The notes under the pieces are model-generated. The model did no database searches. It was given only the letters and a program-made list of their open reading frames with translations, and was not told the DNA's origin. A DNA stretch of 64,000 bases from an uncultured bacterium. Its GTDB lineage: Bacteria; UBP14; UBA6098. Of this stretch, positions 5,693 through 46,625 are shown piece after piece (positions within the stretch are counted from its first letter, which is position 1; each line of letters opens with the position of its first letter). Made by a program: the position numbers and the translations under genes. Location: the NCBI GenBank assembly GCA_964606695.1, contig CAZSHG010000007.1, positions 2,456-66,455 on the forward strand. Reading direction: 5' to 3'.

Positions 5693-5772
5693 TCGTTGGC
5701 GCGATATGCGCGTGCGAGAAAATGTGAGAGCTAAAACCTAATCGCACGTAGCGCATAGCGTGCCAACGGTGG
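5693..5772. repeat. Long imperfect hairpin (about 24 bp arms) in the spacer between tRNA-Lys and tRNA-Leu
   Basis: cgttggcgcgatatgcgcgtgcgag ... tcgcacgtagcgcatagcgtgccaacgg; the arms are near-perfect reverse complements with a loop of about 22 nt. Confidence 0.35.
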
Positions 5773-11879: not shown

Positions 11880-13598
11880 ATGAGTTACGACGACAATCTG
11901 CCTGAGATCGACGGCGTTATCGGGCGCAAGCCGGAGAATCTGGATTTTATCCGCAAGATAATCGAGGAGGACAACGAGTCCGGCAAACACGACGGGCGCG
12001 TGAATACCCGTTTCCCGCCGGAACCGAACGGCTATCTGCATATCGGGCACGCCAAGTCGATATGCCTCAACTACGGGATCGCGGTGGAATACAACGGCAA
12101 GTTCAATCTCCGTTTCGACGACACCAACCCGGCCAAAGAAGATCAGGAGTTCGTAGATTCGATAATCGAAGACGCCCGTTGGCTGGGCGCCGATTGGGAG
12201 GATCGCCTCTTTTTCGCCAGCGATTATTTCGACCGGATGTATGCGCTCGCCGAGGAATTGATTCTCAAGGATAAGGCCTTCGTGTGCGATTTGAACGCCG
12301 ACGAGATGCGCGAATATAGGGGGACGTTGACCGAGCCGGGGAAGAATAGCCCTTTCCGCGAACGGACTGTCGAGGAGAATCTCGATTTGTTCCGGAAAAT
12401 GCGCGCGGGGCAATTCGCGGATGGCTCGCGGACTCTGCGGGCGAAGATCGATATGGCATCGCCGAATATGAACATGCGCGACCCGGTTATCTATCGTATA
12501 GTGCACGCCAGCCACCATCGCACAGGCGACGAGTGGTGTATTTACCCCAGTTACGACTGGGCGCACGGCCTGGAGGATTCGATCGAGCGGATCACGCATT
12601 CGCTGTGCACGCTGGAGTTCGAGGATCATCGCCCCTTATACGACTGGTTTCTGGAACAATTGGAGGTCTATCGCCCCCGACAAATCGAGTTCGCGCCGTT
12701 GAATTTGAGTAATACGATCCTCAGCAAGCGCAAGCTGGGAGAGCTCCTGCGTGAGGGCTACCTCTCCGGCTGGGACGACCCGCGTATGCCTACGCTTTCG
12801 GGATTGCGCAGGCGCGGATATACGCCGGAAGCGATATGGAATTTCTGTCTGCATATAGGGGTTTCAAAGGCGGACAGTCTGGTGGATATCGCTCTGCTCG
12901 AACATTACATTCGCGACGATTTGAATTTACGCGCCAATCGGGTGATGGCGGTTCTCGAGCCGCTGAAGGTGGTTATCGAGAATTACCCCGAGGGCAAGAT
13001 CGAATGGCTCGACGCCGAGAACAACCCGGAGGACGAGTCCGCCGGAACGCGAAAAATACCATTCTCCCGGGAAATATATATCGAACGGCGGGATTTCATG
13101 GAGAATCCCCCTAAAAAATATTTCCGGTTCTTCCCCGGCAACGAGGTGCGGCTAAAACACGCATATTACATAACCTGCACGGACGTTATCAAGAACGACA
13201 CGGGCGAAGTAGTCGAGTTAAGGTGCGAATATGATCCTAACTCGCGCGGAGGCTGGAACCCCGACGGACATCGGGTCAAGGGAACACTGCATTTCGTAAG
13301 CGCAGAACACGCCGTGCCGGCGGAAATCCGGCTTTACGATCATCTGTTCAAAACCGAAAACCCCTCGGACGTCCCGGAAGGCGATTCCTGGATGAATAAT
13401 CTAAACCCGAATTCTATGCAAGTCCTCACCTGTTGTATGGTCGAACCTTCGCTAACCGAGGCCAGGCCGGGGCACAAATTCCAGTTTATGCGCAAGGGCT
13501 ATTTCTGCATGGATAAGGACTCGACGCCGGAGAAGCTGGTTTTCAACCGCACCGTGTCTTTGCGGGACACATGGAAAAAAATACAGAAGCGAAAATGA
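11880..13598 (+). CDS. glnS: Glutaminyl-tRNA synthetase
   Basis: [18 protein letters not shown] (HIGH), and near-colinear similarity with E. coli GlnRS across the whole length. The start is taken at the MSYDD Met. Confidence 0.9.
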
Positions 13599-13700
13599 CC
13601 CGAAATACGTAGTATCGTCCATCGGAAAAAACTATATATGAGGAAGGCGGCTGGCGCGATACATGCATCGGATGGTAGAGCAGTGGTTAGAGGAGGACCG

Positions 13701-13834
13701 TAGCATGTAGCGTGACAGCCGCCAGGTGCAGACCGCGTGGAGGTGGCGGAACCGTTGGCGCAGTTCTTGACGTTTAAAGAAATCTGAAAAATCGGATAAA
13801 GTAAATAGCAAGAACTGTGACAACGGTTTGGATA
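13701..13834. repeat. Structured intergenic repeat element, copy A (inverted copy at 46162..46272)
   Basis: Shares conserved blocks with the reverse complement of copy B: gtagcgtgacagc, tggcgcagttcttg, ctgaaaaa, atagcaagaactgtgaca and ggttggat. Internal inverted repeat cagttcttg/caagaactg and direct repeat gtgacagc. Confidence 0.5.
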
Positions 13835-13889
13835 GTCCTGGCCCTCAAATGAAAACGCCGGCCAAATCGACCGGCGCTTTCGCGATTTT

Positions 13890-13962
13890 TACCCCATGGA
13901 GGATTCGAACCTCCGACCCACTGATTAAGAGTCAGTTGCTCTGCCAGCTGAGCTAATGGGGT
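13890..13962 (-). tRNA. tRNA-Lys (anticodon CTT)
   Basis: Acceptor ACCCCAT/ATGGGGT, anticodon stem ACTGA/TCAGT, loop CTCTTAA. Confidence 0.75.
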
Positions 13963-14029
13963 AAATGAAAAATTTGCTATCGACAGCGGAAAAGTAGCGA
14001 GCCGCTAACACCCGCAGTTGAGCAATTAT

Positions 14030-14511: not shown

Positions 14512-14970
14512 CTATCTCGATCTGGCATTTTCGAAAAAACGTCTCAAAATATCGCTACATTTGTCAGCCATTACTCCCGATGTAACTCGAATGGAATGGC
14601 CGAATCTCGGGTCGTTTACTATATTGAACCCGGACACCGCCGCGCCGAGTTTCGGATCGGGTGCGCCGTAAACCAAACGCCCTACTCTGGCGATCATAAT
14701 CGCCGCCATGCACATCGGACACGGTTCCAGAGTAACATAGAGCGTGACGTCTTCCAGCACACGGCTTCCAATAGCCTCGCCGGCTTTTTTGAGCGCGATC
14801 ATCTCCGCGTGGCCGGTAGGATCGCCGGTTTCGCGGTCGTTTCCCGCGTTAGCGATAATTTCATCGCCCAGAACGGCGACACAACCCACGGGCACCTCGC
14901 CGCAGTCAAAGGCCGCTTCCGCCTCCGCGATAGCCTCCGCCATGTATATTTTGTCTTTATCGATATCCAT
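14512..14970 (-). CDS. tadA: tRNA-specific adenosine-34 deaminase
   Basis: HAEMIAL and PCPMC zinc-binding CDA motifs; 152 aa. Confidence 0.85.
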   Translation of the reverse strand: MDIDKDKIYMAEAIAEAEAAFDCGEVPVGCVAVLGDEIIANAGNDRETGDPTGHAEMIALKKAGEAIGSRVLEDVTLYVTLEPCPMCMAAIMIARVGRLVYGAPDPKLGAAVSGFNIVNDPRFGHSIRVTSGVMADKCSDILRRFFENARSR

Positions 14971-15002
14971 TCAAAGAACTTTAACTGGCGCGCCCGATGC
15001 TA

Positions 15003-15030
15003 CGGACGGCCTACGGATTCGTGGTCCGGT
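15003..15030 (-). other. Anticodon-stem-loop-like copy of tRNA-Arg(ACG) in the tadA 5' region (copy 1)
   Basis: Minus strand reads CCGGACCACGAATCCGTAGGCCG, compared with the tRNA GCCGGACTACGAATCCGTAGGCCG. The ACG anticodon is retained and U33 is changed to C. Confidence 0.4.
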
Positions 15031-15038
15031 TTTATCAA

Positions 15039-15112
15039 CGCGCCCGGCAGGATTCGAACCTGCGGCCTACGGATTCGTAGTCCGGCGCTCTATCCAGCTG
15101 AGCTACGGGCGC
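15039..15112 (-). tRNA. tRNA-Arg (anticodon ACG)
   Basis: Acceptor GCGCCCG/CGGGCGC, anticodon loop CTACGAA. Confidence 0.85.
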
Positions 15113-15157
15113 GAATCAATTCGCTTATTCATATTTTCAAATACGCGCGACTCTAAG

Positions 15158-15188
15158 GGTAGCTTACGGATTCGTAGTTCGGCGTTTT
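15158..15188 (-). other. Anticodon-arm-like copy of tRNA-Arg between the two tRNA-Arg genes (copy 2)
   Basis: Minus strand reads GCCGAACTACGAATCCGTAAGC; the loop is identical to tRNA-Arg(ACG). Confidence 0.35.
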
Positions 15189-15196
15189 GTCTTAAA

Positions 15197-15270
<74 letters not shown>

Positions 15271-15443
15271 GAACGTTCTCAATGACCGTTGCCTGGGTCG
15301 CAAAGCAATCCCTAATGTATATAACCAAGCCGCGAAATGCAAGCTTTTTTGTGATAACTTAACGATTCAACCAGAATCTTATTGCAAAAAGGTGAAAATT
15401 TAATAAGTTGCTCCGATAAAGTAAAATTAAAAAGGAGAGAGTA

Positions 15444-16322
15444 ATGCCTAAATCCTTCGTCTTCACGATATTAGTAATCGTTGTTGTAACTTATGCCTCC
15501 GAACCCGGTCATTGGGAGAAATCCATGGAACTGAACATTAATTTCAACATGAGTAACTACAGCGACAATTGGACCGGTGGCGACGTCGGCGGAATCAACT
15601 GGGTTGCGAATTCGAATATTCTCGCTCAGAAGCAGTTCAATAATTGGTTTCATTGGAAAAACACTCTAAAGATGTCCTTTGGGCAAACTCATTCCCAGGA
15701 CGCCGAAACCGGAAACTGGCTACTTCCTCAGAAATCCACCGATCTGATAGAATTCGAATCTATCGGCAGGTTTACGGTGACAAAATTCGTCGATCCATAC
15801 GCCGCAGTCAATCTGAAAAGTCAGTTTTACGACAAGTGCGACGTTGAGAATCCCAGATATTTCAATCCGATAAACCTCAAAGAGAGTGCGGGTTTTGCGC
15901 GAGTGTTTATCAAAACCGAGAAACGCGAACTCACAAGCCGCGTGGGTTTCGGTATTCGACAGCATATCAACCGCGACGTAATGATCGCCGAGGACGATTA
16001 CGAAACTCAGACAACCAACGACGGCGGTTTGGAGTGGGTGACCGAACTTCGCACGCCTCTGGCCAATGAAAGAATCAGTTATTACACAAAACTTACCGTC
16101 TTCAATGCGGTTTACTATTCAGAGGCAGAGGAGTTAGAAGGAACGCCGCAGGAGGACTACTGGAAAGCCCCGGATATCGATTGGGAGCACATTTTCACGG
16201 CGAACATCACCGAACATCTGATGGTCAACCTTTATTTCCAATTACTGTATGACAAAGAAATCGACCTGAAAGGCCGCCATAAGGAGACTTTGTCGGTTGG
16301 GTTCACTTATAATCTCTTTTAG
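15444..16322 (+). CDS. Predicted outer-membrane beta-barrel protein (signal peptide, C-terminal Phe)
   Basis: N-terminal hydrophobic signal sequence, alternating amphipathic strands, terminal ...YNLF; GGAGAG RBS. Confidence 0.55.
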   Translation: MPKSFVFTILVIVVVTYASEPGHWEKSMELNINFNMSNYSDNWTGGDVGGINWVANSNILAQKQFNNWFHWKNTLKMSFGQTHSQDAETGNWLLPQKSTDLIEFESIGRFTVTKFVDPYAAVNLKSQFYDKCDVENPRYFNPINLKESAGFARVFIKTEKRELTSRVGFGIRQHINRDVMIAEDDYETQTTNDGGLEWVTELRTPLANERISYYTKLTVFNAVYYSEAEELEGTPQEDYWKAPDIDWEHIFTANITEHLMVNLYFQLLYDKEIDLKGRHKETLSVGFTYNLF

Positions 16323-16589
16323 AAAGCAACAAGATCAAGGAGTTCGAGAAGTTCGTCGGCTTTCTTATAGGAATGACAGACGGCTAGTAATATTTACCAT
16401 TTATGACATTTTCCTTGACTAAGGATGTTATTTTACTAATTTATTACAATAGATAATGAACCACTCAAATATAAATACAATATCTACCAGGACGGGCAAA
16501 TACTCGCATTTTGAGTTTCCCCGCTTTTTGGCGAATGCCGAAATATATGCCGAGGATGTGCACTTACGGGTTCTAATCAAGGGGCGAGA

Positions 16590-34100: not shown

Positions 34101-34965
34101 GAACTTCTTTGGGTTCGAGTTCGAAGAAGGAAATCGAATCGACGTCCGCTTCGATGAGAGCGTTGAAATTCTCTTCCGTTATTTCCTCGCCCGCTTCGAG
34201 ATGGACTACGCCCGTATCGAATTCAGCGATGGTGTTGGCGGCGAATTTGCCCAGGACGGATTTGCGGTTTTGAGGATGGACTTTATAGCTCTTGACTTCG
34301 TGGAAAAGCTCGTAAATCGAAGCGTCGGTGTCGTAGCCGAGAGTTCGCAGTAAGGTCGCTATCGAGACCTTCCTTCTCGCGTCGAAATATACCCAGATAG
34401 CCTCGCGGATATCGAATTTCAACTCGATCCAGCTACCCCGATAGGGGATAATCCTCGCGGAAAAAAGCCGTTTGCCGTTGGGATGGATACTCTCGTCGAA
34501 AAATACCCCGGGGCTTCTATGAAGCTGACTGACAACGACTCTTTCGGCCCCATTTACCAGGAAAGTTCCGTATTCTGTAACCAACGGGATTTCGCCAAGA
34601 TAGACCTCGCTTTCGCGGGCTTCTTTCATCCTTCGAGCTTCGCCTTCGCCCTCCCATTCAATCAATTTTAGCTTGACTTTAAGACTGCCGGAGTATGTCA
34701 TATTCCGCACGCGGCATTCCTCGATACCGAAACGCGGTTTCCCAACGCTGTAATTTATATATTCGAGGGTGTATTTGCCGTATAAATCCTCGATAGGGAA
34801 GATACTCTTGAAGACTTCTTCCAGGCCGCGGTTACGCCTTTCCGCGGGGGGAATATCCTTTTGCAGGAATCCTTCGTAAGATTTCACCTGCACATCGAGG
34901 AGATAGGGGATTTCGGCAACAGATTTATTCTTAGTGAAGTCGATATTCTTATTATCCTGGGTCAC
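31195..34965 (-). CDS. rpoB: DNA-directed RNA polymerase subunit beta
   Basis: Full-length beta with the conserved [13 protein letters not shown] and [20 protein letters not shown] regions. Confidence 0.95.
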
Positions 34966-35185
34966 GGTTACCTCGCCGTTTTCTGGTTAACGGTATATTC
35001 GGACCTGAGACGCGCCTTGCTTCCGCGCCATATCTTATTGTATATCAATGACTTATCAATATCGAGCAGGCCATATTTTCAAAAAAACCGAATTCTGCCG
35101 CGACTTAATCCCGTATAGAGAATCGGGCAGAAAGGTTATTCCGGATCGTCCCGTTTGTTTGACGGGACGATCCTATTGCCGTATG

Positions 35186-35605
35186 CTATTTGATTTCTAC
35201 TTTGGCTCCGACCGCTTCCAGTTTTTCCTTGATTGCTTTGGCTTCATCCTCAGGAATATTTTCCTTGATAGCCGCAGGCAAACTGCCTTCGACGAAATCT
35301 TTGGCTTCTTTCAAGCCGAGGTCTGTAACTCCGCGGACTTCCTTGATGACCTTGATTTTCTGGTCACCGACTTCGGCCAGCATTGGAGTGAATTCGGTTT
35401 TTTCTTCTTCCACTGCCGCTGTAGCCGCTCCGCCGGCCGGTCCGGCAGAAACTGCCACCGGGGCCGCCGCGGAAACGCCGAATTTTTCCTCGAGAGCTTT
35501 AACCAGGTCGGCAAGCTCCATTACGGTCAATTTCTCGATGCCGTCGAGTATAGCCTGTGCATTATCGCTCAGGTTGATTTCGGGTGCAACGTCTTCTGGA
35601 CACAT
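35186..35605 (-). CDS. rplL: 50S ribosomal protein L7/L12
   Basis: Ala-rich hinge and a C-terminal domain ([22 protein letters not shown]). Confidence 0.9.
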
Positions 35606-35642
35606 ATCGATCTCCTTTATTGTTTGTTTTAATTTACAAAAT

Positions 35643-36167
35643 CTAAGCTTGCTGTTTCTGTTCGGCTACGGCATTCAATGCCACCGCGAATCCTCGAAGC
35701 AAGCCCGATAGGGTGAACACCAATCCGGTTATTGGAGCGGCGATACCGCCCACTACCATGGCTCTTAACTCGTCCACGCTGGGCAGAGACGCCAATTCAT
35801 CGAATTTGGACAGATCCCAGATAACATCGTCGATTATGAGTCCCTTGATAGCGGGTTTGTCGATATCCTCGATGAACTCCTTAAGCGTTTTAGCCGGCGA
35901 TACAGGATCCTGTGAAGATAAAACAAGGCTGGAAGGGCCCTCCAGGATATCCTCGAGTGAAACGAGCCCCGCCTGTTCTCTTGCAATATTGATAAGGCGG
36001 TTTTTAGCAACGCGCATTTTCGCGCCGCATTCGTTCAATTTGATCCTTAAGTCGCTTACTTCCTTTACGCTTAAACCGGTATGGTCGGTTACTATTTGCA
36101 CATTATTAGAGGAAAGTAGCTCCTTAAGAGCTTCGACCTCACGTTCTTTCTGTGGATTAGGCACCAT
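35643..36167 (-). CDS. rplJ: 50S ribosomal protein L10
   Basis: L10 fold; conserved position between rplA and rplL. Confidence 0.9.
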
Positions 36168-36179
36168 TTCCTCCTAATT

Positions 36180-36878
36180 CTATTTACTGATAATTCCGGT
36201 TAAATCGACCTTCACGCCCGGTCCCATCGTAGAAGACAGGACACATGAACGAAAATAAGCTCCCTTTACAGATGGGGGCCGTGCCTTGCTCAGTGCGTTG
36301 ATCAGCGCCTCGCAGTTATCGTTCAGCGCTTCGGCCTCGAAAGATACCTTGCCGACAATGGCGTGAATAACTCCGCCTTTATCGACGCGATATTCGATTT
36401 TACCGGCTTTAGCTTCGTTGACAGCCTGCTTAATATTAGGGGTGACGGTTCCGGCTTTCGGATTGGGCATGAGACCTCTCGGCCCCAGCACTTTTCCTAA
36501 CCTCCCGACCTTGCTCATCATTTGCGGATGGGCTATAGCGACGTCGAAATCGACTTCTCCGCCCTGGATTTTTTCTACAAGGTCGTCGCCACCGACGATA
36601 TCCGCGCCCGCTTCCTTAGCTGAATCGGCGTCCTCGCCCTCGGCAAAGACAGCGATGCGAAGGCTCTTGCCCGTTCCGGCGGGCAGAACTACCGTTCCGC
36701 GAACCATCTGGTCGGCGTGCCGGGGATCGACACCGAGTTTTATCGCCATATCCACGGATTCATCGAATTTAGCGAAAGAATTCTCTTTCACCAGATCGAT
36801 AGCTTCCTTAAGCGGATATTGCTTTTCTCGGTCGATTTTCTCGCGCGCGTTACTATAATTTTTTCCGTGTTTCGGCAT
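36180..36878 (-). CDS. rplA: 50S ribosomal protein L1
   Basis: MPKHGKNY start with an AGGGGG RBS; the ORF-track start at 36935 is an upstream over-extension. Confidence 0.9.
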
Positions 36879-36888
36879 ATCGCACCCC

Positions 36889-37314
36889 CTAATCCATAAC
36901 CTCGATACCCATGCTTCGAGCGGTTCCCTCGACAATACGCATGGCGCCTTCGATATCTATTGCGTTGAGGTCGGGCATCTTGGTTTCGGCTATTTCTTTG
37001 ACCTGTTTTCGGGTTACCGTTCCGACTTTCTCGGTGTTTGGAACGCCCGAACCCTTTTCGATGCCCGCGGCCTTGCGCAACAGATCGCTCGCCGGCGGAG
37101 TTTTGGTTATGAAATCGAACTTATTATTCTGGTAAACCGTGATGACTACCGGAATAATGACGTCCCCCATCTTCTGGGTTTGGGCGTTGAAGGCCTTGCA
37201 GAAATCCATGATATTGATTCCGGCCTGGCCTAACGCCGGCCCCACAGGTGGGGCGGGTGTCGCTTTGCCAGCAGGTATCTGTAGCTTAACGATTGTTTTT
37301 ACTTCTTTTGCCAT
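36889..37314 (-). CDS. rplK: 50S ribosomal protein L11
   Basis: [43 protein letters not shown]. Confidence 0.95.
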
Positions 37315-37406
37315 ATTTTTCCTTTCATCCTCCCACGGTTAAGGCATTCCGTGGTAAATGGACTCCCAAAGCGGGAATGAATTAACTCGAAAGAGTGCGT
37401 CAAAAT

Positions 37407-37946
37407 TTATTCCGTATCCTCTTTTATCTGGAGAAAATCGACCTCGACCGGGGTCAATCTTCCGAAAATACTCACCATGACCTTTATTTTACCCCTTTCA
37501 GGGTTGATTTCCGATATGGTTCCGGAGAAATCGCGGAAGGGTCCGTCAACAACCTTCACGGCGTCGCCGACAACAAACGGAATCTCGATCTTATGTTCGG
37601 CGGCTTCGATTCCACCGGTGCGAGCTTTTATCCTGTCGATTTCCTCTTCGCTGACCGGGACAGGTTTACCGCCGCTCGATGTCAGAAAACCGGTAACTCC
37701 GGGAGTTCCGTTTACGAGTGCGATTGTCTCTTTGCTCGCTTCCATATTGACCAGAATATAGCTGGGAAAGAACTTCCGCTGGACGGTTCGTCTTTTGCCC
37801 TGACGCATTTCGATAATATCCTCGGTAGGAATAAGGATTTCAAAAATACGATCCTCATATCCCTTTTCGCGAATAGCGGCATCGAGGTAGCGTTTGGCCT
37901 TTTGCTCGTGACCGGAAAGCGTATGAACTACATACCAATTCGCCAT
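37407..37946 (-). CDS. nusG: Transcription termination/antitermination factor NusG
   Basis: NGN domain (WYVVHTLSGHE) and a KOW motif (FVVGDAVKVVDGPFRDFSGTI). Confidence 0.9.
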   Translation of the reverse strand: MANWYVVHTLSGHEQKAKRYLDAAIREKGYEDRIFEILIPTEDIIEMRQGKRRTVQRKFFPSYILVNMEASKETIALVNGTPGVTGFLTSSGGKPVPVSEEEIDRIKARTGGIEAAEHKIEIPFVVGDAVKVVDGPFRDFSGTISEINPERGKIKVMVSIFGRLTPVEVDFLQIKEDTE

Positions 37947-38132
37947 TTAACCTAACACCAACCGCACGAGTTTCAAGAATAATTGGTCGATAACGCCGAC
38001 GAACACAAGAAGCAAAACGCTACTGATAACGACGGCAATAGTCAGACCGGTCAACTCTTCACGAGTCGGCCACCTGACCTTTTTCGCCTCCTGATAGGAC
38101 TCTTTAATAAAAGTTTTGATTTTCTCGAACAT
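37947..38132 (-). CDS. secE: Preprotein translocase subunit SecE
   Basis: MFEKIKTFIKESYQEAKKVRWPTREEL followed by a single TM; the longer ORF-track start would run through tRNA-Trp. Confidence 0.75.
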   Translation of the reverse strand: MFEKIKTFIKESYQEAKKVRWPTREELTGLTIAVVISSVLLLVFVGVIDQLFLKLVRLVLG

Positions 38133-38195
38133 ATTGCCAGTCCGTAATTTAGTTTTGCCGGAAGGCGGAGCGTTTAACTCCGCCATCCATAATCT

Positions 38196-38269
38196 CAGGC
38201 CCGGAGGGAATCGAACCCCCAACCCCCGGTTTTGGAGACCGGTGCTCTGCCAGATTGAGCTACAGGCCT
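38196..38269 (-). tRNA. tRNA-Trp (anticodon CCA)
   Basis: Anticodon stem CCGGT/ACCGG, loop CTCCAAA; conserved position between rpmG and secE. Confidence 0.85.
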
Positions 38270-38290
38270 ATATCGATGGCAGGCACAAAC

Positions 38291-38443
38291 CTACCTTGTT
38301 TCCTTATGCATTGTATGCTTGCCGCATTTGGAGCAGAATTTCTTATACTCGACACGTTCGGGATGTTTCCGCTTGTTCTTCGTGTAAGTATAATTCTTCG
38401 CCTTGCAAACGGTGCAAGCAAGTATAATGACGTCTCTCGGCAT
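38291..38443 (-). CDS. rpmG: 50S ribosomal protein L33 (50 aa, Cys4 zinc ribbon)
   Basis: Hand-translated [50 protein letters not shown]. It is not in the ORF track because it is shorter than 60 aa; it lies 2 nt downstream of tuf. Confidence 0.85.
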
Positions 38444-38445
38444 AA

Positions 38446-39654
38446 TTACTCGATGATCGTATGAACGACACCGGCGCCGATTGTCTTTCCGCCTTCACGG
38501 ATGGCGAACCGAAGTCCCTCTTCCATCGCGATAGGCGAAATCAACTTGCAGTCCATTGTGACGTTGTCGCCGGGCATAACCATCTCGCGGCCTTCAGGTA
38601 GTTGGATTTCACCGGTAACGTCGGTAGTCCTGAAATAGAACTGCGGTCTGTAACCGGTGAAGAACGGCTTATGACGCCCGCCTTCTTCCTTTTTGAGAAC
38701 GTAAACCTCGGCCTTAAATTTGGTATGAGGGGTAATCGATCCCGGTTTTGCCAGAACCATACCGCGCTCTACCTCATCCTTGCCGATACCGCGTAGAAGC
38801 ACGCCGACATTGTCTCCGGCTTCCGCGTAATCGAGAAGTTTCCTGAACATCTCGAGGTCTGTGGCGACTGTTTCGCGGGTTTCGCTGATTCCCACGATCT
38901 CGACTTTGTCGTTCTTGTTGATTTTACCGCGCTCGACACGACCGGTGGCAACCGTTCCACGTCCGGTAATCGAGAAGATGTCCTCGACCGGCATAAGGAA
39001 AGGTTTATCGACGTCTCTCTCCGGAGTCGGGATGTAATCATCGACCGCATCCATAAGTTCGAGGATCGGCTTGAATTCCGGCGATTCCACCATTTTTGTG
39101 TCGTCGAGACCCGCGTTCATGGCTTCCAGCGCGCTTCCCCGGATAATGGGGATATCGTCGCCGGGGAATTCATGCTTGGTCAGAAGTTCTCTGACTTCGA
39201 GTTCGACGAGGTCGAGCAGTTCCTCGTCATCGACCTGATCCGTCTTGTTCATAAACACCACCATAGCGGGCACGTTCACCTGTTTGGCGAGTAGCACGTG
39301 CTCGGTGGTTTGCGGCATCGGACCGTCGGCGGCGCTCACCACAAGGATAGCGCCGTCCATCTGCGCCGCGCCGGTAATCATATTCTTGATGTAGTCGGCG
39401 TGCCCGGGACAGTCGATGTGCGCATAATGGCGTTTCGCGGTCTCATACTCGACATGAGCGGTGTTAATAGTGATTCCGCGTTCCTTCTCCTCAGGGGCGT
39501 TGTCGATGTCGTCAAATTTCTCGACTTTCGAGAACCCCTGGCGGCTGAGCACCATCGTGATCGCCGCGGTGAGAGTCGTTTTACCGTGGTCGATGTGACC
39601 GATCGTTCCCACGTTCACGTGGGGCTTTTTGCGCTCAAAATGTTCTTTGGCCAT
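38446..39654 (-). CDS. tuf: Elongation factor Tu
   Basis: [16 protein letters not shown]1 motif, [12 protein letters not shown] motif. Confidence 0.95.
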
Positions 39655-39704
39655 TTCAATCCTCCTTAATTAGCCTATTTAGCGCATGTTACTTATTTTC
39701 AAAT

Positions 39705-40220
39705 TTAAACTCTATCGAGGAAATCGAGCAAAAAATCTGCCAGACGGCCTAACACGCCATGTCTGGTCTGTTTCGACTCGTCTTCCTCCGATTCGGTTTC
39801 TTCAAATATCTTTCCGAGACCTTTTTCTCGAAATATCTTCCGGGCTTCTTTGTCCCAGATTTCGTCAAAAGCCTGTAGAGCGACCAACTCGCTTTTATCC
39901 AACCATAGACCGCAACCGTTAGAACAGCGGTCAATAACCACGCCCGTGTCGTATCCGTAAACGGCACGGCTGAGCCTGGAACCGCAGGACGGGCAAACGA
40001 TTTCATCCTGTAGTTCCTCTTTAGGTATCGCCCTGATGCGCCATTCGCGAGCTTCTTCGAGCGCTTCCGATGGCATTCTTTCCTTTCGGGTTTCGATAAT
40101 CTCCCGAAGAATTTTGCCGTCAACCCAAAAACCGCCGCAATCGATGCACTGACGGATAGGGTAATCCTCGTATTTAGTCTCCGTCAATTTCCTGCCGCAA
40201 TGAGGGCATTTCATTATCAA
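39705..40220 (-). CDS. Protein with two zf-TFIIB-type zinc ribbons and an acidic C-terminus
   Basis: CPHCGRKL...CIDCGGFWVDGKILREI and CPSCGSRL...CSNGCGLWLDKSELVAL. Confidence 0.55.
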   Translation of the reverse strand: MIMKCPHCGRKLTETKYEDYPIRQCIDCGGFWVDGKILREIIETRKERMPSEALEEAREWRIRAIPKEELQDEIVCPSCGSRLSRAVYGYDTGVVIDRCSNGCGLWLDKSELVALQAFDEIWDKEARKIFREKGLGKIFEETESEEDESKQTRHGVLGRLADFLLDFLDRV

Positions 40221-40232
40221 ACTCCGTCCAAA

Positions 40233-40306
<74 letters not shown>

Positions 40307-40333
40307 GAACCAAAGATTATCAAACAACTCAAA

Positions 40334-40407
40334 AGCGGGAAACGGGATTCGAACCCGCGACATTCAGCTTGGAAGGCTGACGCTCTAGCCAGCTGAGCTA
40401 TTCCCGC
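40334..40407 (-). tRNA. tRNA-Gly (anticodon TCC)
   Basis: Acceptor GCGGGAA/TTCCCGC, anticodon stem TCAGC/GCTGA, loop CTTCCAA. Confidence 0.85.
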
Positions 40408-40420
40408 AATTCAAAATATG

Positions 40421-40502
40421 TGGTGGGGGGAGGATTCGAACCTCCGAAGGCGTTGCCGACAGATTTACAGTCTGTTCCCTTTGGCCGCTCGGGAACCCCA
40501 CC
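40421..40502 (-). tRNA. tRNA-Tyr (anticodon GTA), long variable arm, CCA encoded
   Basis: Acceptor GGTGGGG/CCCCACC, loop CTGTAAA. Confidence 0.85.
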
Positions 40503-40518
40503 AAAACCGGTATCAAAC

Positions 40519-40590
40519 AGCCGACGGAGGGAATCGAACCCTCAACCTGCGGTTTACAAAACCGCTGCTCTACCCTTGAGCTACATCGGC
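40519..40590 (-). tRNA. tRNA-Thr (anticodon TGT)
   Basis: Acceptor GCCGATG/CGTCGGC, anticodon stem GCGGT/ACCGC, loop TTTGTAA. Confidence 0.85.
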
Positions 40591-40781
40591 AAAAGCCATA
40601 CCGATTGCCGGTATAGACTTGCCAAATAAATACATTAGAAGCCCGGATGTCAAGCTATTTTTCAGAAAAATATCACTTTTTTTGAAAAAAACTGATATAT
40701 TTGTTGACAATGCCAATTCCAAATTATATTTTCATTTAGTTTGCGTGTTGAAAATTACGTAAGAATCACGGAGGTTTAAAT

Positions 40782-40985
40782 ATGGGCAAGAAGAAAAGGA
40801 CATTTGCGGATAAGGTGGCAAAGGGCACCGGGCCGCGTGGAGAGGTTTGCCCCGAATGCGATACGGTTAAAAGGATAATAAAAATCGTCCGGGCAGAGCG
40901 AGACGAGGAAAAAGGCTCGTGGCGATTTTCGGAAAACATCGAGAAAGTTTGCAAATGCAACGAGAAGGAATTGCTGGCTTCCTGA
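40782..40985 (+). CDS. Small basic zinc-binding protein (CPEC...CKC), function unknown
   Basis: 67 aa; strong GGAGG RBS; four Cys in a CxxC...CxC arrangement; Lys-rich N-terminus. Confidence 0.45.
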   Translation: MGKKKRTFADKVAKGTGPRGEVCPECDTVKRIIKIVRAERDEEKGSWRFSENIEKVCKCNEKELLAS

Positions 40986-41178
40986 TAAATTCCCGTTTAT
41001 AACTCTTTAGCTAACCGTCGGTTAGAGCCGGCGGTTTCCTTTTATTTTCGTAAATTCCACGTTTGCCCGAATAAAAAAAATAAAAAAAATTAATTTTTTC
41101 CTTGCGCAACCTAACCTAAACTTCTATTATATAGGCAAATAAAACCTGTTATTTCGAGTGTATTGTCAGGGAGGATAA

Positions 41179-41457
41179 ATGAACTTAGAGCATTTTCAAG
41201 CTCTTGAAGACAAGATAAATCAGCTCCTTAACCACATAATCAAACTAAAAGAAGAGAAGCGCGAACTCATCGAGGCGAACCAGCGTATGGAATCCAGAAT
41301 TAAAGAAATTCAGAAAGAAAAAGACGAGATTACCGCCGAGAAAGAGAAACTCGAGAAGGAAACGCAGTCGGTCGAAAGCGCTACCGAACACGAAAGTGAA
41401 ATAAAAAATCGCGTCGAGGCTCTTCTTAATAAAGTGGACGAAGTCGTCGGATCTTAA
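41179..41457 (+). CDS. Coiled-coil protein (ZapB-like) upstream of zapA
   Basis: 92 aa, predicted continuous heptad coiled coil; RBS GGGAGG. Confidence 0.4.
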   Translation: MNLEHFQALEDKINQLLNHIIKLKEEKRELIEANQRMESRIKEIQKEKDEITAEKEKLEKETQSVESATEHESEIKNRVEALLNKVDEVVGS

Positions 41458-41487
41458 GGTAAAGGCTGATAGAAACGCGGATATCGG

Positions 41488-41793
41488 ATGATAGACGAAC
41501 CGAAAAACAATAAGATTACAATCAAAGTCCGAATATATGGCAAGGAATATTCCATTCGGAGTTCTAAAGATACGGAATATGTCGAGGAAGTCGCCCGCTA
41601 CGTCGATAACAAGATGACCGAAGTCGATAAGAGCGGCGTATCCTCGAGCCCTGTTCAGGTGGCTGTTCTCGCGGCCATGAATATTACGGACGAGTTTTTT
41701 AGTGTTAAGACTCAGGATTCGACTGCGGTTAAGGAACTCGAAGAGAAGGCAAAGGACCTTACCGAGAAAATAAACTCGGCACTAGAAGAATAG
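41488..41793 (+). CDS. zapA: Cell division protein ZapA
   Basis: About 100 aa. The IKVRIYGKEYSIRS...VARYVDNKMTEV pattern matches ZapA (compare B. subtilis TVDIYGQQFTIVG...VASIVDDKMREI). Confidence 0.65.
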   Translation: MIDEPKNNKITIKVRIYGKEYSIRSSKDTEYVEEVARYVDNKMTEVDKSGVSSSPVQVAVLAAMNITDEFFSVKTQDSTAVKELEEKAKDLTEKINSALEE

Positions 41794-41935
41794 AATTTTT
41801 CGACGTAGGGTCGTCTATCTGCCCACCGGTCCGCGATGTGGCCCCGGTGGGTTTGTTATTTGCACGATTTTCTTTTGAATACCACGTCCTTCCCCGGTGA
41901 AGGCAGGTTTAATTATAAATTGAAGGGAGTTTAGA

Positions 41936-43501
41936 ATGAACTGGCTCATTGGAATAATAGCTGGATTAGTCGTCGGAATAGCCGGCGGATATTTTATTGG
42001 TTTGGCTTTCGTCCGAAGAACGGGACGTAACCGAATCAGCGACGCCGAAGCCAAAGCAAAAAAGATAATAGAGGAGGCACAGCACAAATCCGAAATCAAG
42101 TTGAAGGAAGCGGAACTCGCATCTAAAGATAAACTGATTCAGATGAAACAGGATTTCGAGCGGGAGACGCAATCCAAACACAACGAGATTCGGCGGGAGG
42201 AGAGAAAATTATCGGAGAAACAGGCCTCTATCGAGCGCAAGATGGATCTTCTGAGGAAAAAGGACAGAGATTCTCAATCGCGCGAGAGACTATTGGCACA
42301 ACAGGAGAAACAGATTCGTCAGAAACAGAACGAGCTCGAAGAATTATTCGAGCGCCAGAACCGGCAACTTGAAAGAATAGCCGGAATGAGCGCCGAGGAG
42401 GCCAAACAACTTCTTATTCAGAACCTCGAGCAGGAAGCCCGAGCCGATGCCGCGAAAATAATCCGCAATATTCGTGAAAAAGCGGAAGCCAATGCGGAAC
42501 GCGAGGCGCGGCAGATTATTATCGATTCTATACAACGCTGTGCCGCCGATACGACCGTGGAATCGACCGTTAGCGTCGTAAGTTTACCCTCCGACGAGTT
42601 AAAAGGCCGAATCATCGGGCGGGAAGGGAGGAACATTCGCGCTTTTGAGATAGCTACCGGAGTCGATGTTATCGTTGACGATACGCCGGAAGCTGTCATT
42701 CTGTCTGGATTCGATCCCATACGAAGAGAGATAGCAAGGATATCTCTGGAGAAATTAATTCTGGACGGTAGAATCCACCCGGCGAGGATCGAGGAAAGCG
42801 TCAAGAAAGCCGAAAAGGAGATGGAAGTCATCATCCGTGAGGCCGGCGAACAGGCGTGTTTCGAGGTCGGTATCCACGATCTCGATCCCGAGCTCGTAAA
42901 TCTGATGGGACGGCTTAAATACAGGACTTCATACGGCCAGAACGTCCTGCAACATTCTATAGAAGTCGCTCATCTATCCGCACATATAGCAGATTTGCTG
43001 GAACTCGATCCTCAAACGGCACGTCGTTGCGGATTACTGCACGATATAGGCAAATCGATCGATCGCGGCCAGGAAGGCACACATACAGAACTTGGCCATG
43101 AGGTAGCTCGCAGGCATGGCGAAAGCCCGATCGTTCTTAATGCAATACTCGCTCACCATGCGGACGTGGAAGCTGAAACGCCCTACACTATAATTACGAT
43201 GGCTTCCGACGCTATTTCCGGGGCGCGTCCGGGCGCCCGACGCGAGACTTTGGAGAATTACGTCAAGCGACTCGAAAGGCTCGAAAAGGTAGCCGACGGG
43301 TTCTCTGGTGTCGAGAAATCATACGCGATTCAAGCGGGACGTGAGGTTCGGGTAATGGTCGTTCCTGACGAGGTTACTGATCAGGATTCCTCGTTCATGG
43401 CTTCCGAAATCGCGCAGAAAATCCAGGATGAACTGGAATATCCGGGACAGATAAAAGTAACCGTTATCCGCGAAACACGGGCGGTCGATTACGCGAAATA
43501 A
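41936..43501 (+). CDS. rny: Ribonuclease Y
   Basis: N-terminal TM, coiled coil, KH domain (RIIGREGRNIRAFE) and HD domain (LLHDIGKS); near-colinear with B. subtilis Rny. Confidence 0.9.
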   Translation: MNWLIGIIAGLVVGIAGGYFIGLAFVRRTGRNRISDAEAKAKKIIEEAQHKSEIKLKEAELASKDKLIQMKQDFERETQSKHNEIRREERKLSEKQASIERKMDLLRKKDRDSQSRERLLAQQEKQIRQKQNELEELFERQNRQLERIAGMSAEEAKQLLIQNLEQEARADAAKIIRNIREKAEANAEREARQIIIDSIQRCAADTTVESTVSVVSLPSDELKGRIIGREGRNIRAFEIATGVDVIVDDTPEAVILSGFDPIRREIARISLEKLILDGRIHPARIEESVKKAEKEMEVIIREAGEQACFEVGIHDLDPELVNLMGRLKYRTSYGQNVLQHSIEVAHLSAHIADLLELDPQTARRCGLLHDIGKSIDRGQEGTHTELGHEVARRHGESPIVLNAILAHHADVEAETPYTIITMASDAISGARPGARRETLENYVKRLERLEKVADGFSGVEKSYAIQAGREVRVMVVPDEVTDQDSSFMASEIAQKIQDELEYPGQIKVTVIRETRAVDYAK

Positions 43502-43522
43502 GCGTATCTCTTCCGATTACAG

Positions 43523-43552
43523 GGCGGCGTTTCAACGCGCCGCCTTTTTTAT
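43523..43552 (+). terminator. Rho-independent terminator after rny
   Basis: ggcggcg-tttcaac-gcgccgcc hairpin followed by ttttttatt. Confidence 0.5.
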
Positions 43553-43622
43553 TGAGTAAAAATCGTTTGCTAATTCGATTTTACACGATTATCTTCATTT
43601 CCCGCGAGAAGGCGCGGTTATT

Positions 43623-44438
43623 ATGCGAGTTTTATTCATTGGCGACATATTTGGGCAACCCGGCAAACGTGCGGTTCACGATTTACTACCGTTAATTGTC
43701 GAAGAACAATCTCCCGATATCATTATTGCCAACGGCGAGAATATAGCCGGCGGTTTCGGGATTACGATGAATCTGGCGAAAAAGCTTTTCCGATATGGCG
43801 TGGACGTTATTACCATGGGAAATCACATCTGGGACAGGTCGGACGCCGACGAGATAATGAATTCCGACATGAATATTCTCCGTCCGCTTAATTTTCCGCC
43901 GGGCAACCCGGGCAGGGGTAGCCTCGTTTTCGAGACTGAATTCGCGGGCAAGATAGGTGTAATTAATACTCAGGGACGCGTTTTCATGCGCTGTATCGAC
44001 GACCCGTTCCGTGCGACTTTGCGAGAAATCGAGAAACTTCAGGCAATCACGCCGATCATTCTTATCGACTTTCATGCGGAAGCGACTTCGGAGAAAAAGG
44101 CTTTTGGATTCTTCGTCGATGGGCAGGTCAGCGCGGTGATTGGCACCCATACTCATATCCAGACGACCGATAATCAAATTTTGCCCAAAGGAACGGCTTT
44201 TATAACCGACGTGGGAATGACCGGGGCGCACGAGTCGGTTATCGGAGTGAAACCGGAACTTGGGCTCCAATTTCTTCTTTCGGGACGAAACGTGCGTTTT
44301 TCGCCCGCAACGAATGATGTTCGTCTGCAAGGCGCGATTATCGATATTAACGAATACGGAGCGGCAGAATCTATAGAACGGCTCGATATACCTTATGAGG
44401 AGGATAATGGAGAAATACAACGAAATTCTGGAGATTAA
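43623..44438 (+). CDS. ymdB: YmdB-family metallophosphoesterase (2',3'-cyclic-nucleotide phosphodiesterase)
   Basis: MRVLFIGDIFGQPGKRAV N-terminus compared with B. subtilis YmdB MRILFIGDVVGSPGR; it follows rny as in Firmicutes. Confidence 0.8.
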   Translation: MRVLFIGDIFGQPGKRAVHDLLPLIVEEQSPDIIIANGENIAGGFGITMNLAKKLFRYGVDVITMGNHIWDRSDADEIMNSDMNILRPLNFPPGNPGRGSLVFETEFAGKIGVINTQGRVFMRCIDDPFRATLREIEKLQAITPIILIDFHAEATSEKKAFGFFVDGQVSAVIGTHTHIQTTDNQILPKGTAFITDVGMTGAHESVIGVKPELGLQFLLSGRNVRFSPATNDVRLQGAIIDINEYGAAESIERLDIPYEEDNGEIQRNSGD

Positions 44439-45291
44439 TATTGGCAGAGAACCTGATTTTCGCGGCAAAGTGCGCGATGTCTATGACCTGGGGAACAGAT
44501 TACTAATAGTTGCCACTGATCGTCTGAGCGCTTACGATGCTATTTTGCCGAATGGAATCCCCGGACGAGGCGTCGTGCTTACACAGATGTCCGATTTTTG
44601 GTTTAACCGGACTTCGGAATCGGTTCCCAACCATCTGATTACGACCGATTTCGATACTTTTCCCGAAGAACTCCGAAAGTTTCGTGATCAACTCGAAGGC
44701 CGCACTATGTTATGCAATAAGGCGGAGAGGATAGACATCGAATGCGTTGCGAGAGGCTATCTTGCGGGAAGCGGTTGGCGCGAATATGAAAAACACGGCA
44801 CCGTATGCGATATTGCTTTACCTGAGGGTCTGCTCGAGTCCGACCGCTTGCCGGAACCGATTTTCACTCCGGCTACAAAGGCCGAACAGGGCGACCACGA
44901 TGAGAATATCTCATTTAACCGAATGGTCGAGTTGGTGGGCAAAGACCTTGCTGAACGGCTACGTATGCTTACATTAAAACTTTACGACGACGCGGCAACA
45001 TACGCCCTTTCGCGAGGTATTATTATCGCCGATACGAAGTTTGAATTCGGATTCATCGAAGGCGAACTTTGCGTGATAGACGAGATGCTCTCGCCGGATT
45101 CCAGCCGTTTTTGGGACGCCCAGGAGTGGACGCCAGGACGGCCTCAGGACAGTTACGACAAACAATATGTCCGCGACTGGCTGGCTAATTCCGGGTTCAC
45201 GGGCGAAGGCGAACCTCCGAGGTTACCGGGTGAAGTTGTTACCGGGACTATTAGGCGATATGAAGAAGTCCGGAACAGGCTTATTGGTTAA
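44407..45291 (+). CDS. purC: Phosphoribosylaminoimidazole-succinocarboxamide (SAICAR) synthase
   Basis: GKVRDVYD...LLIVATDRLSAYD motif; GAGGAGG RBS before the ATG at 44407; it overlaps the ymdB 3' end by 32 nt. Confidence 0.85.
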   Translation: MEKYNEILEINIGREPDFRGKVRDVYDLGNRLLIVATDRLSAYDAILPNGIPGRGVVLTQMSDFWFNRTSESVPNHLITTDFDTFPEELRKFRDQLEGRTMLCNKAERIDIECVARGYLAGSGWREYEKHGTVCDIALPEGLLESDRLPEPIFTPATKAEQGDHDENISFNRMVELVGKDLAERLRMLTLKLYDDAATYALSRGIIIADTKFEFGFIEGELCVIDEMLSPDSSRFWDAQEWTPGRPQDSYDKQYVRDWLANSGFTGEGEPPRLPGEVVTGTIRRYEEVRNRLIG

Positions 45292-45412
45292 ATTTAATTA
45301 GCTTTTTGGTAACTGAAATCGGTTCAAAAAAAATTCTTTACCGAAAACATAACTTGAATTCGAGTAAATCATCTACATATTATTATTAGCGTGAAAGAAA
45401 AATGGAGGAAAG

Positions 45413-46087
45413 ATGAAAAAAAGAATAACCTATTTAGTTTTATTTCTATTGAGCTTTTCGGTTGCTTTCGCGGTCGTAATAGACATCGTTCGAATTAGCG
45501 ATGTGCCGCTTATACTCGATATCAACGTCTATAATGACGGGGAACCGCCTGTCGAAATAACCGATTTCCATTTCAGCGTATCACCTCCTTGCGAGGTAGT
45601 GGCCGCGGAAGGCCCTCCAGGATGGACTCTACGATACGCATTGCCAAACAGTTTCGTCGAAATGGACGCTGGCGACGGCGCGGAGATTCCGCCGGGAGGT
45701 TCCGGGTCGTTCAGGGTTACGCTCGAAGGGCCCTGCGAAGACGCCAGTTATACCTTGTATTTAACCAGTCCCGAAGGTGTGATCCCTGGAAGCGAGCAGG
45801 AAGGTCCTCTGGGGCCTTTGGACGTTGGGACGGGAGTTAGACCGGAAAATATCGAGATCGAAATCTCGCCCAATCCATTCAACTCGTCGTGTGCTATTTC
45901 GGTTCCTGCGCGTGCCCGGATTGTTATTTACGACCTAACCGGACAGATTATAGATAAATTCGACTGCGGCTGTTCGAGAACTACATGGACATGGCGTCCA
46001 GATGAGAACCGGCCATCGGGAATATACCTTGTAAAGGCAACTCTGGGCGATTTAACTCTGACTAAACGCCTCGTTTATATGAAATAG
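45413..46087 (+). CDS. Secreted protein with a C-terminal FlgD-Ig-like / T9SS-type sorting domain
   Basis: Signal peptide. C-terminus SPNPFNSSCAISVP...IVIYDLTGQIIDKF...WTWRPDENRPSGIYLVKATLGDLTLTKRLVYMK. Confidence 0.6.
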   Translation: MKKRITYLVLFLLSFSVAFAVVIDIVRISDVPLILDINVYNDGEPPVEITDFHFSVSPPCEVVAAEGPPGWTLRYALPNSFVEMDAGDGAEIPPGGSGSFRVTLEGPCEDASYTLYLTSPEGVIPGSEQEGPLGPLDVGTGVRPENIEIEISPNPFNSSCAISVPARARIVIYDLTGQIIDKFDCGCSRTTWTWRPDENRPSGIYLVKATLGDLTLTKRLVYMK

Positions 46088-46161: not shown

Positions 46162-46272
46162 ATCCAACCGGCTGTCACAGTTCTTGCTATTCTCAAACCA
46201 GTTTTTCACCTAATCTCAGAAGGCAAGAACTGCGCCAGCCTGCGCTATGACCGCTGTCACGCTACGTGCCAC
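46162..46272. repeat. Structured intergenic repeat element, copy B (reverse-complement copy of 13701..13834)
   Basis: Blocks gctgtcacagttcttgctat and gcaagaactgcgccag (inverted repeat), then a second gctgtcacgctac (direct repeat); about 70% identity to rc(A), with long identical blocks. Confidence 0.5.
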
Positions 46273-46439
46273 ATTTTCTTTTAATTTAGGAATTTTCTCG
46301 TTGGATGCACGTATCGCGCCAGCGGCCTTTTATGTTGGAGTTTCAACCTACGGGCTTATCCTTTTTAATAGACGGCACCCAATTTTCGAAAGGGATTCGG
46401 CGATTTTTCAATGAATACAGTTTGTTTTTCAACGGTATG

Positions 46440-46625
46440 ATATAGCTTTTAATAAACTACATATCGATTTTAATGAACAACACATCGTTTTTCCCAAACC
46501 ACATATCGTTTCTAATAACATACATTTAGGATTTCCAAACATATACTTAGTTTTGCAAAAACATCTCATCGTTTTTAAAAAAGTCCATTTAGTATTTACG
46601 AAACTATTTAGCCGTTTTTGAGGAC
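46440..46625. repeat. Tandem array of about 9 imperfect ~21 bp AT-rich repeats (consensus roughly ATCGTTTTt-AAaaACAcAT), immediately 3' of the HTH gene
   Basis: Successive units read atatcgattttaatgaacaacac / atcgtttttcccaaaccac / atatcgtttctaataacatac / atttaggatttccaaacatatac / ttagttttgcaaaaacatctc / atcgtttttaaaaaagtcc / atttagtatttacgaaacta / tttagccgtttttgagg. Confidence 0.5.

Follow-up and report, generated by a model that had tools for sequence, protein, structure and literature searches.

A strand-asymmetric family of intergenic hairpin repeats in an uncultured, probably Zixibacteria-like bacterium

The window, that is, the whole 64-kb stretch of DNA that was analysed, carries metH, hypD, an aspartate/ornithine carbamoyltransferase gene, CO dehydrogenase, glnS, tadA, PFOR and rpoBC, together with genes for ribosomal proteins, tuf, RNase Y, purC, gdh, two-component systems and 14 tRNAs. 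Because a T9SS sorting domain is found in the window and the nearest named purC homologues belong to Zixibacteria MAGs (71% and 61%), the host lineage is probably a T9SS-bearing, Zixibacteria-like member of the FCB group. Five long hairpins lie at three loci of this window. Two of these loci, one next to glnS (copy A) and the other next to a secreted-protein gene (copy B), were described in the first-pass annotation as an element of ~110–135 nt present in opposite orientations. All of the shared blocks quoted there are found in the sequence, and the reverse complement of 46162–46329 aligns with 13644–13833 (blastn E = 2.3e-12; MAFFT alignment). However, each copy is actually ~185 nt long, and the similarity begins ~60 nt earlier than was claimed. 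The block overlooked at that time, AAGGC-GCTGGCGCGATAC-TGCATC with A or G preceding TGCATC (13644–13669 and 46330–46305), is the 5' arm of a first hairpin, and the block 'gtagcgtgacagc' of the earlier reader is its 3' arm.

Each copy shows reverse-complement self-matches by blastn, and folding gives two tandem long imperfect hairpins per copy. The single-stem layout drawn in the first reading was incomplete and has to be replaced by two tandem hairpins, and the 'direct repeat gtgacagc' said to flank the stem is actually the 3' foot common to both of them. An insertion of ~24 nt reported for copy A is real; it measures ~22 nt and appears as a gap of the MAFFT alignment in the spacer between the hairpins. 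The folds are far more stable than those of shuffled sequences, with z values of −7.45 for the copy A region and −6.05 for the copy B region and 0 of 200 shuffles as good. A weaker blastn match led to the solitary fifth hairpin, H3. The foot pattern TGGCGCR-N40-70-GTGMCARC has five matches in the 64-kb window against 0.00 expected, and a relaxed foot-plus-fold scan of the same 64 kb gave no further convincing copy, with matches in coding regions at the shuffle level. The features are as follows (CM R1, covariance model R1).

5694–5768, + strand: H3, solitary full type-1 hairpin between tRNA-Lys(ttt) and tRNA-Leu(taa), CGTTGG-CGCG-A-TATGCGC-GTGC ... GCAC-GTA-GCGCATA-G-CGTG-C-CAACG; found by blastn, foot pattern and CM R1 (88.5 bits, E = 4.2e-25).
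13646–13723, + strand: H1A, first hairpin of copy A, short type-1, foot GGCGGCTGG-CGCG-A-TACATGC ... GCATGTA-G-CGTG-A-CAGCCGCC with non-canonical positions G.A, G.T and A.G; found by fold, foot pattern and CM R1 (44.1 bits, E = 4.8e-11), with stems identical in the orthologue L046.
13724–13749, + strand: spacer between H1A and H2A, holding the ~22-nt segment that is missing in copy B; its CCGCCA...TGGCGG could form a small alternative hairpin.
13750–13828, + strand: H2A, second hairpin of copy A, type-2, AACCGTTGG-CGC-AGTTCTTG ... CAAGAACT-GTG-A-CAACGGTT; found by fold, foot pattern, inverted repeat I1 and CM R1 (31.5 bits), with a stem sequence that recurs in L009 241–309 and in L046.
46168–46241, − strand: H2B, second hairpin of copy B, type-2, GGCTGG-CGC-AGTTCTTGC ... 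GCAAGAACT-GTG-A-CAGCC; found by fold, foot pattern and relaxed scan, with the orthologous doublet 3' of the same secreted-protein gene in L044 5700–5878.
46251–46325, − strand: H1B, first hairpin of copy B, short type-1, CCGCTGG-CGCG-A-TACGTGC ... GCACGTA-G-CGTG-A-CAGCGG; found by fold, foot pattern and CM R1 (49.4 bits, E = 1e-12), with one compensated change from an A-T to a G-C pair relative to H1A.

The H1A loop (13672–13700), GGATGGTAGAGCAGTGGTTAGAGGAGG, resembles a tRNA D-arm; this likeness is probably fortuitous, since it is kept neither in L046 nor in H1B. Between copy A and tRNA-Lys(ctt) there is also a G+C-rich hairpin (13851–13886, CGCCGGCC...GACCGGCG) with T-runs on both strands, which is kept in L046, L168 and L169. 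A simple terminator scan does not call it; it is probably the tRNA-Lys terminator and possibly bidirectional. On the other side, an array of ~21-nt units occupies 46440–46540, reaching ~46600, between copy B and a small HTH-like ORF (46632–46964, − strand). Its TRF consensus is ATATCGTTTTTAATAAACTAC (4.1 copies, 70% matches), up to seven units are seen by eye, and it could be iteron- or operator-like. Similar 'gatatcgttt' words also occur upstream of the doublet in L009 (1–60).

Each unit of the family is an imperfect palindrome of 70–80 nt, the top strand of which folds into one long hairpin. All five window hairpins share the foot 5'-GYTGG-CGC(G)...(C)GTG-M-CARC-3'. The Y/R pair of this foot covaries (C-G, T-A and, in L044, A-T), the fifth position is G.A or G-C, and the C-G / G.T / C-G block is invariant, with a G.T wobble that is never 'repaired' to G-C. 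In type-1 units the foot block is followed by an A.G mismatch and then by T-A and A-T pairs. The full type-1 form (H3 and the metagenomic copies) has a 7-bp helix, a 3-nt bulge in the 3' arm (mostly GTA), a helix of 4–6 bp and an A/T-rich loop of ~25 nt, and the short form (H1A and H1B) is without the distal helix. The bulge does not make the structure a K-turn, which was rejected by inspection: Watson–Crick pairs follow it, not tandem G.A pairs. The type-2 stem (H2A and H2B) is GCGC-AGTTCTTG(C) / (G)CAAGAACT-GTGAC. Upper stems and loops differ between copies, while the pairing is kept.

This conservation of pairing was quantified on a 24-sequence alignment with 24 pairs, 500 shuffles and five measures; CM R1 was built from the same alignment. 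Paired cells amount to 96.9%, compared with 88.0% in the shuffles and 34–43% when the partner column is slid. Changes on both sides of the pair occur in 11 of the 24 pairs, and none of the 500 shuffles matches the observed value on any of the five measures. The covariation check proposed with the first annotation thus gives the hairpin strong support. The two strands are not equivalent. The G13.U74 wobble is present in 24/24 aligned sequences. In 32/32 copies, folding favours the sense hairpin over the antisense one by ~5 kcal/mol, whether RNA or DNA parameters are used. The functional form would therefore be one particular single strand. The isolated arms (n = 6) fold no better than shuffles, five with z values of 0.04 to 0.90 and one of −1.82.

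We scanned one genome per GTDB species and the JGI/ENA metagenomes with the foot pattern. The GTDB genomes gave eight pattern matches, two of which are genuine hairpins (L001 and L005), both in unclassified MAGs. The metagenomes gave 33 loci by pattern with ~25 genuine type-1 copies, most of them from three related samples. These copies have near-identical interiors and unrelated flanks and lie on separate contigs; the unrelated flanks imply many insertion sites. The reading as a repeat, which the first-pass annotation had staked on further copies being found, survives. Divergent members that keep only the foot, found with CM R1, are L032 (twice in tandem), L027 and L005. In L009, next to folE2, a type-1 hairpin is followed after a 14-nt gap by a type-2 hairpin with the stem of the window. 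Units occur either singly or as this fixed doublet, type-1 then type-2 in the same orientation, and the order is kept twice in the window and in L046, L044 and L009. The doublet is a recurring unit, because L009 also has type-1 followed by type-2.

The viral contigs gave no match to the type-1 pattern, and a bare 14-mer gave chance matches only. The suggested comparison with Rfam (release 15) returned no family for the window, all three loci or one metagenomic copy, at either the gathering or the E-value threshold; the matches in the window at the gathering score are tRNAs only, and the E-value mode lists generic miRNA-hairpin models far below threshold. There are three loci in the 64-kb window, and the large contigs with matches carry ~1 strict type-1 copy in every 60 kb; 111 kb of relatives' loci, selected via glnS or purC and not via a hairpin match, hold one hairpin. 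The copy number therefore looks modest, tens rather than hundreds. Four type-1 hairpins lie 18–217 nt downstream of, and sense to, paralogues of a family of 330–380-aa proteins (L020 3853–4374, L023 3027–4175, L030 2642–3655 and L038 764–1774) that share the motif GFVPKSxIWTP and have no Pfam match. This may reflect a multi-copy gene family in one genome or a preferred insertion context.

The first-pass description of an intergenic element holds for all copies examined: the ~30 copies are always intergenic, often 13–40 nt past a stop codon, and their neighbours are functionally unrelated housekeeping genes. About 11 lie between convergent genes, seven are sense and six antisense to co-directional neighbours, and two lie between divergent genes; a hairpin between convergent genes is often closer to the one that it opposes in strand. 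No target-site duplication is present: the best direct repeat averages 1.33 nt, and 1.40 nt in the control. The immediate flanks are weakly complementary and extend the stem by 2.36 bp, compared with 0.88 in the control. The 5' flanks of 28 copies are heterogeneous, and GTAG occurs only as the type-1 bulge within the 3' arm. A promoter scan found nothing above chance (no site for copy A, and two against 1.5 expected for copy B), and a terminator scan called none at the hairpins, which have no U-tract or T-run after the foot.

Pfam domain scans of most window ORFs of at least 120 aa and of 20 neighbours of hairpins found no transposase, recombinase or Y1_Tnp domain, and no Ro/TROVE or RtcB gene is among the window ORFs scanned. 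A regular-expression search of the window and loci, 292 kb in total, for an HUH...Y motif was also negative. These are weak negatives, because RAYTs are single-copy. A parent insertion sequence with hairpin-foot termini was not seen in the loci examined.

Relatives of the host allow the two doublets of the window to be compared with orthologous junctions. The closest relative, L046 (glnS 93% amino-acid identity, 89% DNA identity), has the layout of the window, with a response regulator, glnS, the doublet and tRNA-Lys(ctt); both doublet stems are identical to those of the window and the loops have diverged. In L044 (glnS 87%), RNase Y, YmdB, purC and the secreted-protein gene are followed by a doublet on the minus strand, as in copy B, and then by glnS. 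The first hairpin of L044 shows several stem differences from H1B, all compensated, and keeps the G.A, G.T and A.G positions. A T-box or leader for glnS was rejected: in the window the element comes after glnS, and in L044 it lies upstream of this gene but on the opposite strand. In the more distant relatives L168, L169 and L170 (purC 81–82%) the element is absent 3' of the secreted-protein gene. In L168/L169, ~240 nt that lack the element follow this gene, and then come a terminator, tRNA-Lys(ctt), tRNA-Ser, tadA and DUF3078; in L170 another gene follows. The hairpins are thus present or absent at an orthologous junction, and they are located at synteny breakpoints.

In the window, the secreted-protein gene (ending at 46087) and tRNA-Lys (13889) are 32 kb apart, each adjoined by a doublet. 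By blastn, 1–11612 of L168/L169 maps to window 34426–46007 and 12331–14015 maps to window 14524–16360, in the same orientation. By this mapping, the ancestral convergent junction between the secreted gene and tRNA-Lys is split in the window into two, with one inverted-orientation doublet at each. The two doublets are paralogues flanking a 32-kb segment whose ends are direct neighbours in related genomes. Block M (13.85–17.3 kb; tRNA-Lys, tRNA-Ser, tadA, two tRNA-Arg, DUF3078 and a 143-aa ORF) and block P (17.4–46.1 kb; from tRNA-Cys/Gly through rpoBC, tuf and RNase Y to the secreted gene) are in the order M-P in the window and P-M in L168/L169. No element remnant is found at the internal M/P junction (17.2–17.5 kb). 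With D for the doublet, a single-event rearrangement fails for the layouts glnS-D-M-P-D in the window, P-M in L168/L169 and P-D-glnS in L044; at least two events are needed.

The right-hand neighbour of the secreted gene or doublet is glnS in L044, tRNA-Lys in L168/L169 and the HTH-like ORF in the window, and in L017 a type-1 hairpin lies between orthologues of genes that are 50 kb apart in the window. No transposition event was seen, nor an empty/filled pair with otherwise identical flanks, the latter because the junction without the element is itself rearranged. Compared with the window, glnS is oriented differently in the L043 genome, and its neighbour differs in window/L046, L044 and L043. 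A second, unrelated family of long palindromes, with the foot GTCATTTCGAG...CTCGAAATGAC, occurs in relatives (L169 11707–11847 and 20399–20479, L168 17947–18027) and is absent from the window. Single GTCATTTCGAG/CTCGAAATGAC foot words are found at L043 6981, L045 11844, L170 6705 and L024 8470, and one copy of this family occupies the secreted gene/tRNA-Lys junction where the window lineage has its doublet.

To place the family among known repeats, we compared it with REPINs. These are REP doublets that form hairpins and are mobilised by RAYT tyrosine transposases in Pseudomonas and Enterobacteria; the cognate RAYT, a Y1 HUH transposase, is single-copy and usually flanked by the repeats. Published work on REPINs describes conserved inverted arms, a spacer that is never identical and always hairpin-forming, several groups per genome and long vertical persistence (PMC3337134; 10.1101/2022.05.22.493013). 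A conserved GTAG tetranucleotide 5' of the hairpin foot is a hallmark of REPs, and HUH/Y1 enzymes read REPs and the ends of IS200/IS605 as folded single-stranded DNA (PMC3479197). The window family resembles REPINs in its size (~70–110 nt), in its inverted arms with a differing spacer that keeps the hairpin, and in its extragenic position, often at gene 3' ends. Like REPINs, it falls into several groups of sequences in its lineage, shows no target duplication and persists for long periods at orthologous sites. However, its arms are not short palindromes, and GTAG is missing at the 5' foot. In addition, there is no RAYT motif in the 292 kb, the copies seem to number tens and not hundreds, and the uncultured lineage is probably Zixibacteria-like. 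Lastly, the fixed heterotypic doublet, with type-1 and then type-2 in the same orientation, is not a described REPIN arrangement.

Other systems are less close. ERIC/IRU (~127 bp) are enterobacterial and Correia elements belong to Neisseria; both are, like the window family, long imperfect palindromes that are intergenic, passively transcribed, capable of RNA or DNA hairpins, lineage-specific and tied to genome plasticity, but they are unrelated to it in sequence. In Correia elements the target duplication is TA and the terminal repeats are bound as duplex DNA, whereas the window family is without target duplication and has a strand-specific invariant asymmetry. Integron attC sites share a conserved folded-strand foot with unpaired or mismatched bases, a variable distal paired part and one functional strand. 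Nevertheless, an attC identity was rejected for mismatch in core-site sequence and context: the foot GYTGGCGC ... GTGMCARC differs from R''/R' (RYYYAAC / GTTRRRY), there is no intI/integrase or cassette array, and the copies are scattered among housekeeping genes. The GGCUGG start prompted a comparison with Y RNAs, which have the Ro-binding stem GGCUGGUCCGA / UUGACUAGCC. The two share this start, a stem made from the 5' and 3' ends, a conserved lower helix, a variable upper part and tandem copies, but the pairing register and the bulged-C motif differ and the gene orientation is random for the window family. This identity was also rejected, as no Y_RNA/Yrl model matches even at E ≤ 10, the register differs and the ORFs scanned contain no Ro/RtcB.

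The rival explanations divide according to whether the hairpin acts as RNA or as DNA. The hairpins may be cis-acting elements of 3' UTR or inter-cistronic RNA, kept by the host, as is known for some REPs, for protection of the upstream mRNA against 3'-exonucleases, or for processing, termination or protein binding. The position of many copies 13–40 nt past a stop codon, the high stability of the hairpins and the co-orientation of copy A with glnS, followed by a terminator-like hairpin, would suit such a role, and a conserved G.U wobble with purine–purine mismatches is typical of RNA helices recognised by proteins. Against this, the orientation to the adjacent gene is essentially random (seven sense, six antisense), and convergent pairs often have the hairpin nearer the gene to which it is antisense. 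The antisense hairpin is ~5 kcal/mol weaker and has lost the wobble. Moreover, no U-tract follows the hairpins and two copies lie between divergent genes, and we regard this explanation as unlikely for the family. An independently transcribed small RNA gene, with the ~185-nt doublet in two paralogous copies and single hairpins as related RNAs, is considerably less probable. Its appeal lies in the conserved order of the doublet in the window (twice), L046, L044 and L009, in the type-2 stem sequence that is conserved across genomes and in an A/T-rich box read 3–12 nt upstream of each doublet. Yet the promoter scan is at chance level, Rfam has no family, no terminator follows copy B in its own direction, the flanks of single type-1 copies are unrelated and G+C-rich as far as the foot itself, and the element is missing at the orthologous site in L168, L169 and L170. 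The small RNA family, one of three options in the first-pass annotation, is accordingly disfavoured, with no Rfam match or conserved promoter and with single copies in either orientation.

At the DNA level, the element could be a classical MITE, derived by deletion from a DDE-type insertion sequence, that uses the foot as terminal inverted repeats and moves by cut-and-paste. The inverted termini GGCTGGCGCG / CGTGMCAGCC and the small, multi-copy, intergenic nature agree with this. However, such a transposase would bind both ends as duplex, and the two 'repeats' differ at invariant positions (G.T in 24/24); the interior is paired over its full length with compensatory changes, which terminal repeats need not have, target-site duplications are missing and no parent insertion sequence was seen in the loci examined. 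We consider a classical MITE improbable, and only marginally less so than the small RNA gene. The least probable of these explanations is that the doublets are dedicated sites at which an invertase or recombinase flips or reshuffles the 32-kb segment between them. The inverted copies do bound the 13.85–46.1 kb segment, and the right-hand neighbour of the secreted gene/doublet does differ in three lineages. Against this, no recombinase is near among the window ORFs scanned, rpoBC and genes for ribosomal proteins lie in the segment, relatives differ from the window by a block interchange and not by a simple inversion, and most family members are solitary and unpaired. In L046, the closest relative, the isomer is also that of the window at the one junction covered, that of copy A. 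From the recombination-site option of the first annotation, the breakpoint location is thus retained and the dedicated site is not. The REP/MITE-like option fits best of the three, given that the element is multi-copy, intergenic and without an ORF and that further copies were found.

We therefore describe the hairpins as a real, non-coding, structured and previously uncatalogued repeat family, best described as a variant of the bacterial interspersed hairpin repeats. On balance, by a small measure, we favour the reading that the family is a non-autonomous, strand-asymmetric, REPIN-like hairpin repeat. Recognition as folded single-stranded DNA is favoured because the orientation is random with respect to transcription while the strand asymmetry is invariant, and we infer from this that the hairpin acts at the level of DNA rather than RNA. 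The top strand would be recognised in its folded single-stranded form, for example behind the replication fork. The structure-specific enzyme that does so would have its gene elsewhere in the genome and would be an HUH/Y1 enzyme of the 'RAYT' type or one with a similar function. The element would be mobile in that it is copied into new intergenic sites without target-site duplication. Resident copies would then persist over the long term under selection for the hairpin, in which the distal stem and loop can vary provided that pairing is kept, and as dispersed repeats they would end up at rearrangement breakpoints. Some copies may also have a role at the RNA level. Membership in the REP/REPIN family proper is not established, because there is no 5' GTAG, the arms are non-palindromic, no RAYT is found in ~0.3 Mb and the copy number seems modest.

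Alternatively, the family may represent a distinct, non-RAYT class. An invariant helix with an obligatory G.U(T) wobble, 'GYUGG-CGC / GUG-M-CARC', and a free distal stem would be read by a protein of this lineage. Block rearrangements around the rpoBC / ribosomal-protein / tRNA region would be driven by the fixed doublet as the active unit, by a mechanism based on single-stranded DNA or guided by RNA. We think this unlikely, slightly more so than a cis-acting RNA role; if true, it would be a new mobile or recombinogenic system.

To our knowledge, REP/REPIN-type repeats have been studied almost exclusively in Proteobacteria. A structurally similar family that departs from two of their sequence hallmarks, in an uncultured, probably Zixibacteria-like FCB lineage, suggests either several origins of long-hairpin repeats or broader rules of recognition. 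The family is a marker of places where synteny breaks and could plausibly explain broken contigs in MAGs of this group, and its compact covariance model can be used to annotate genomes of the lineage. Finally, the invariant G.T wobble provides an experimental handle for finding the protein that reads the hairpin.
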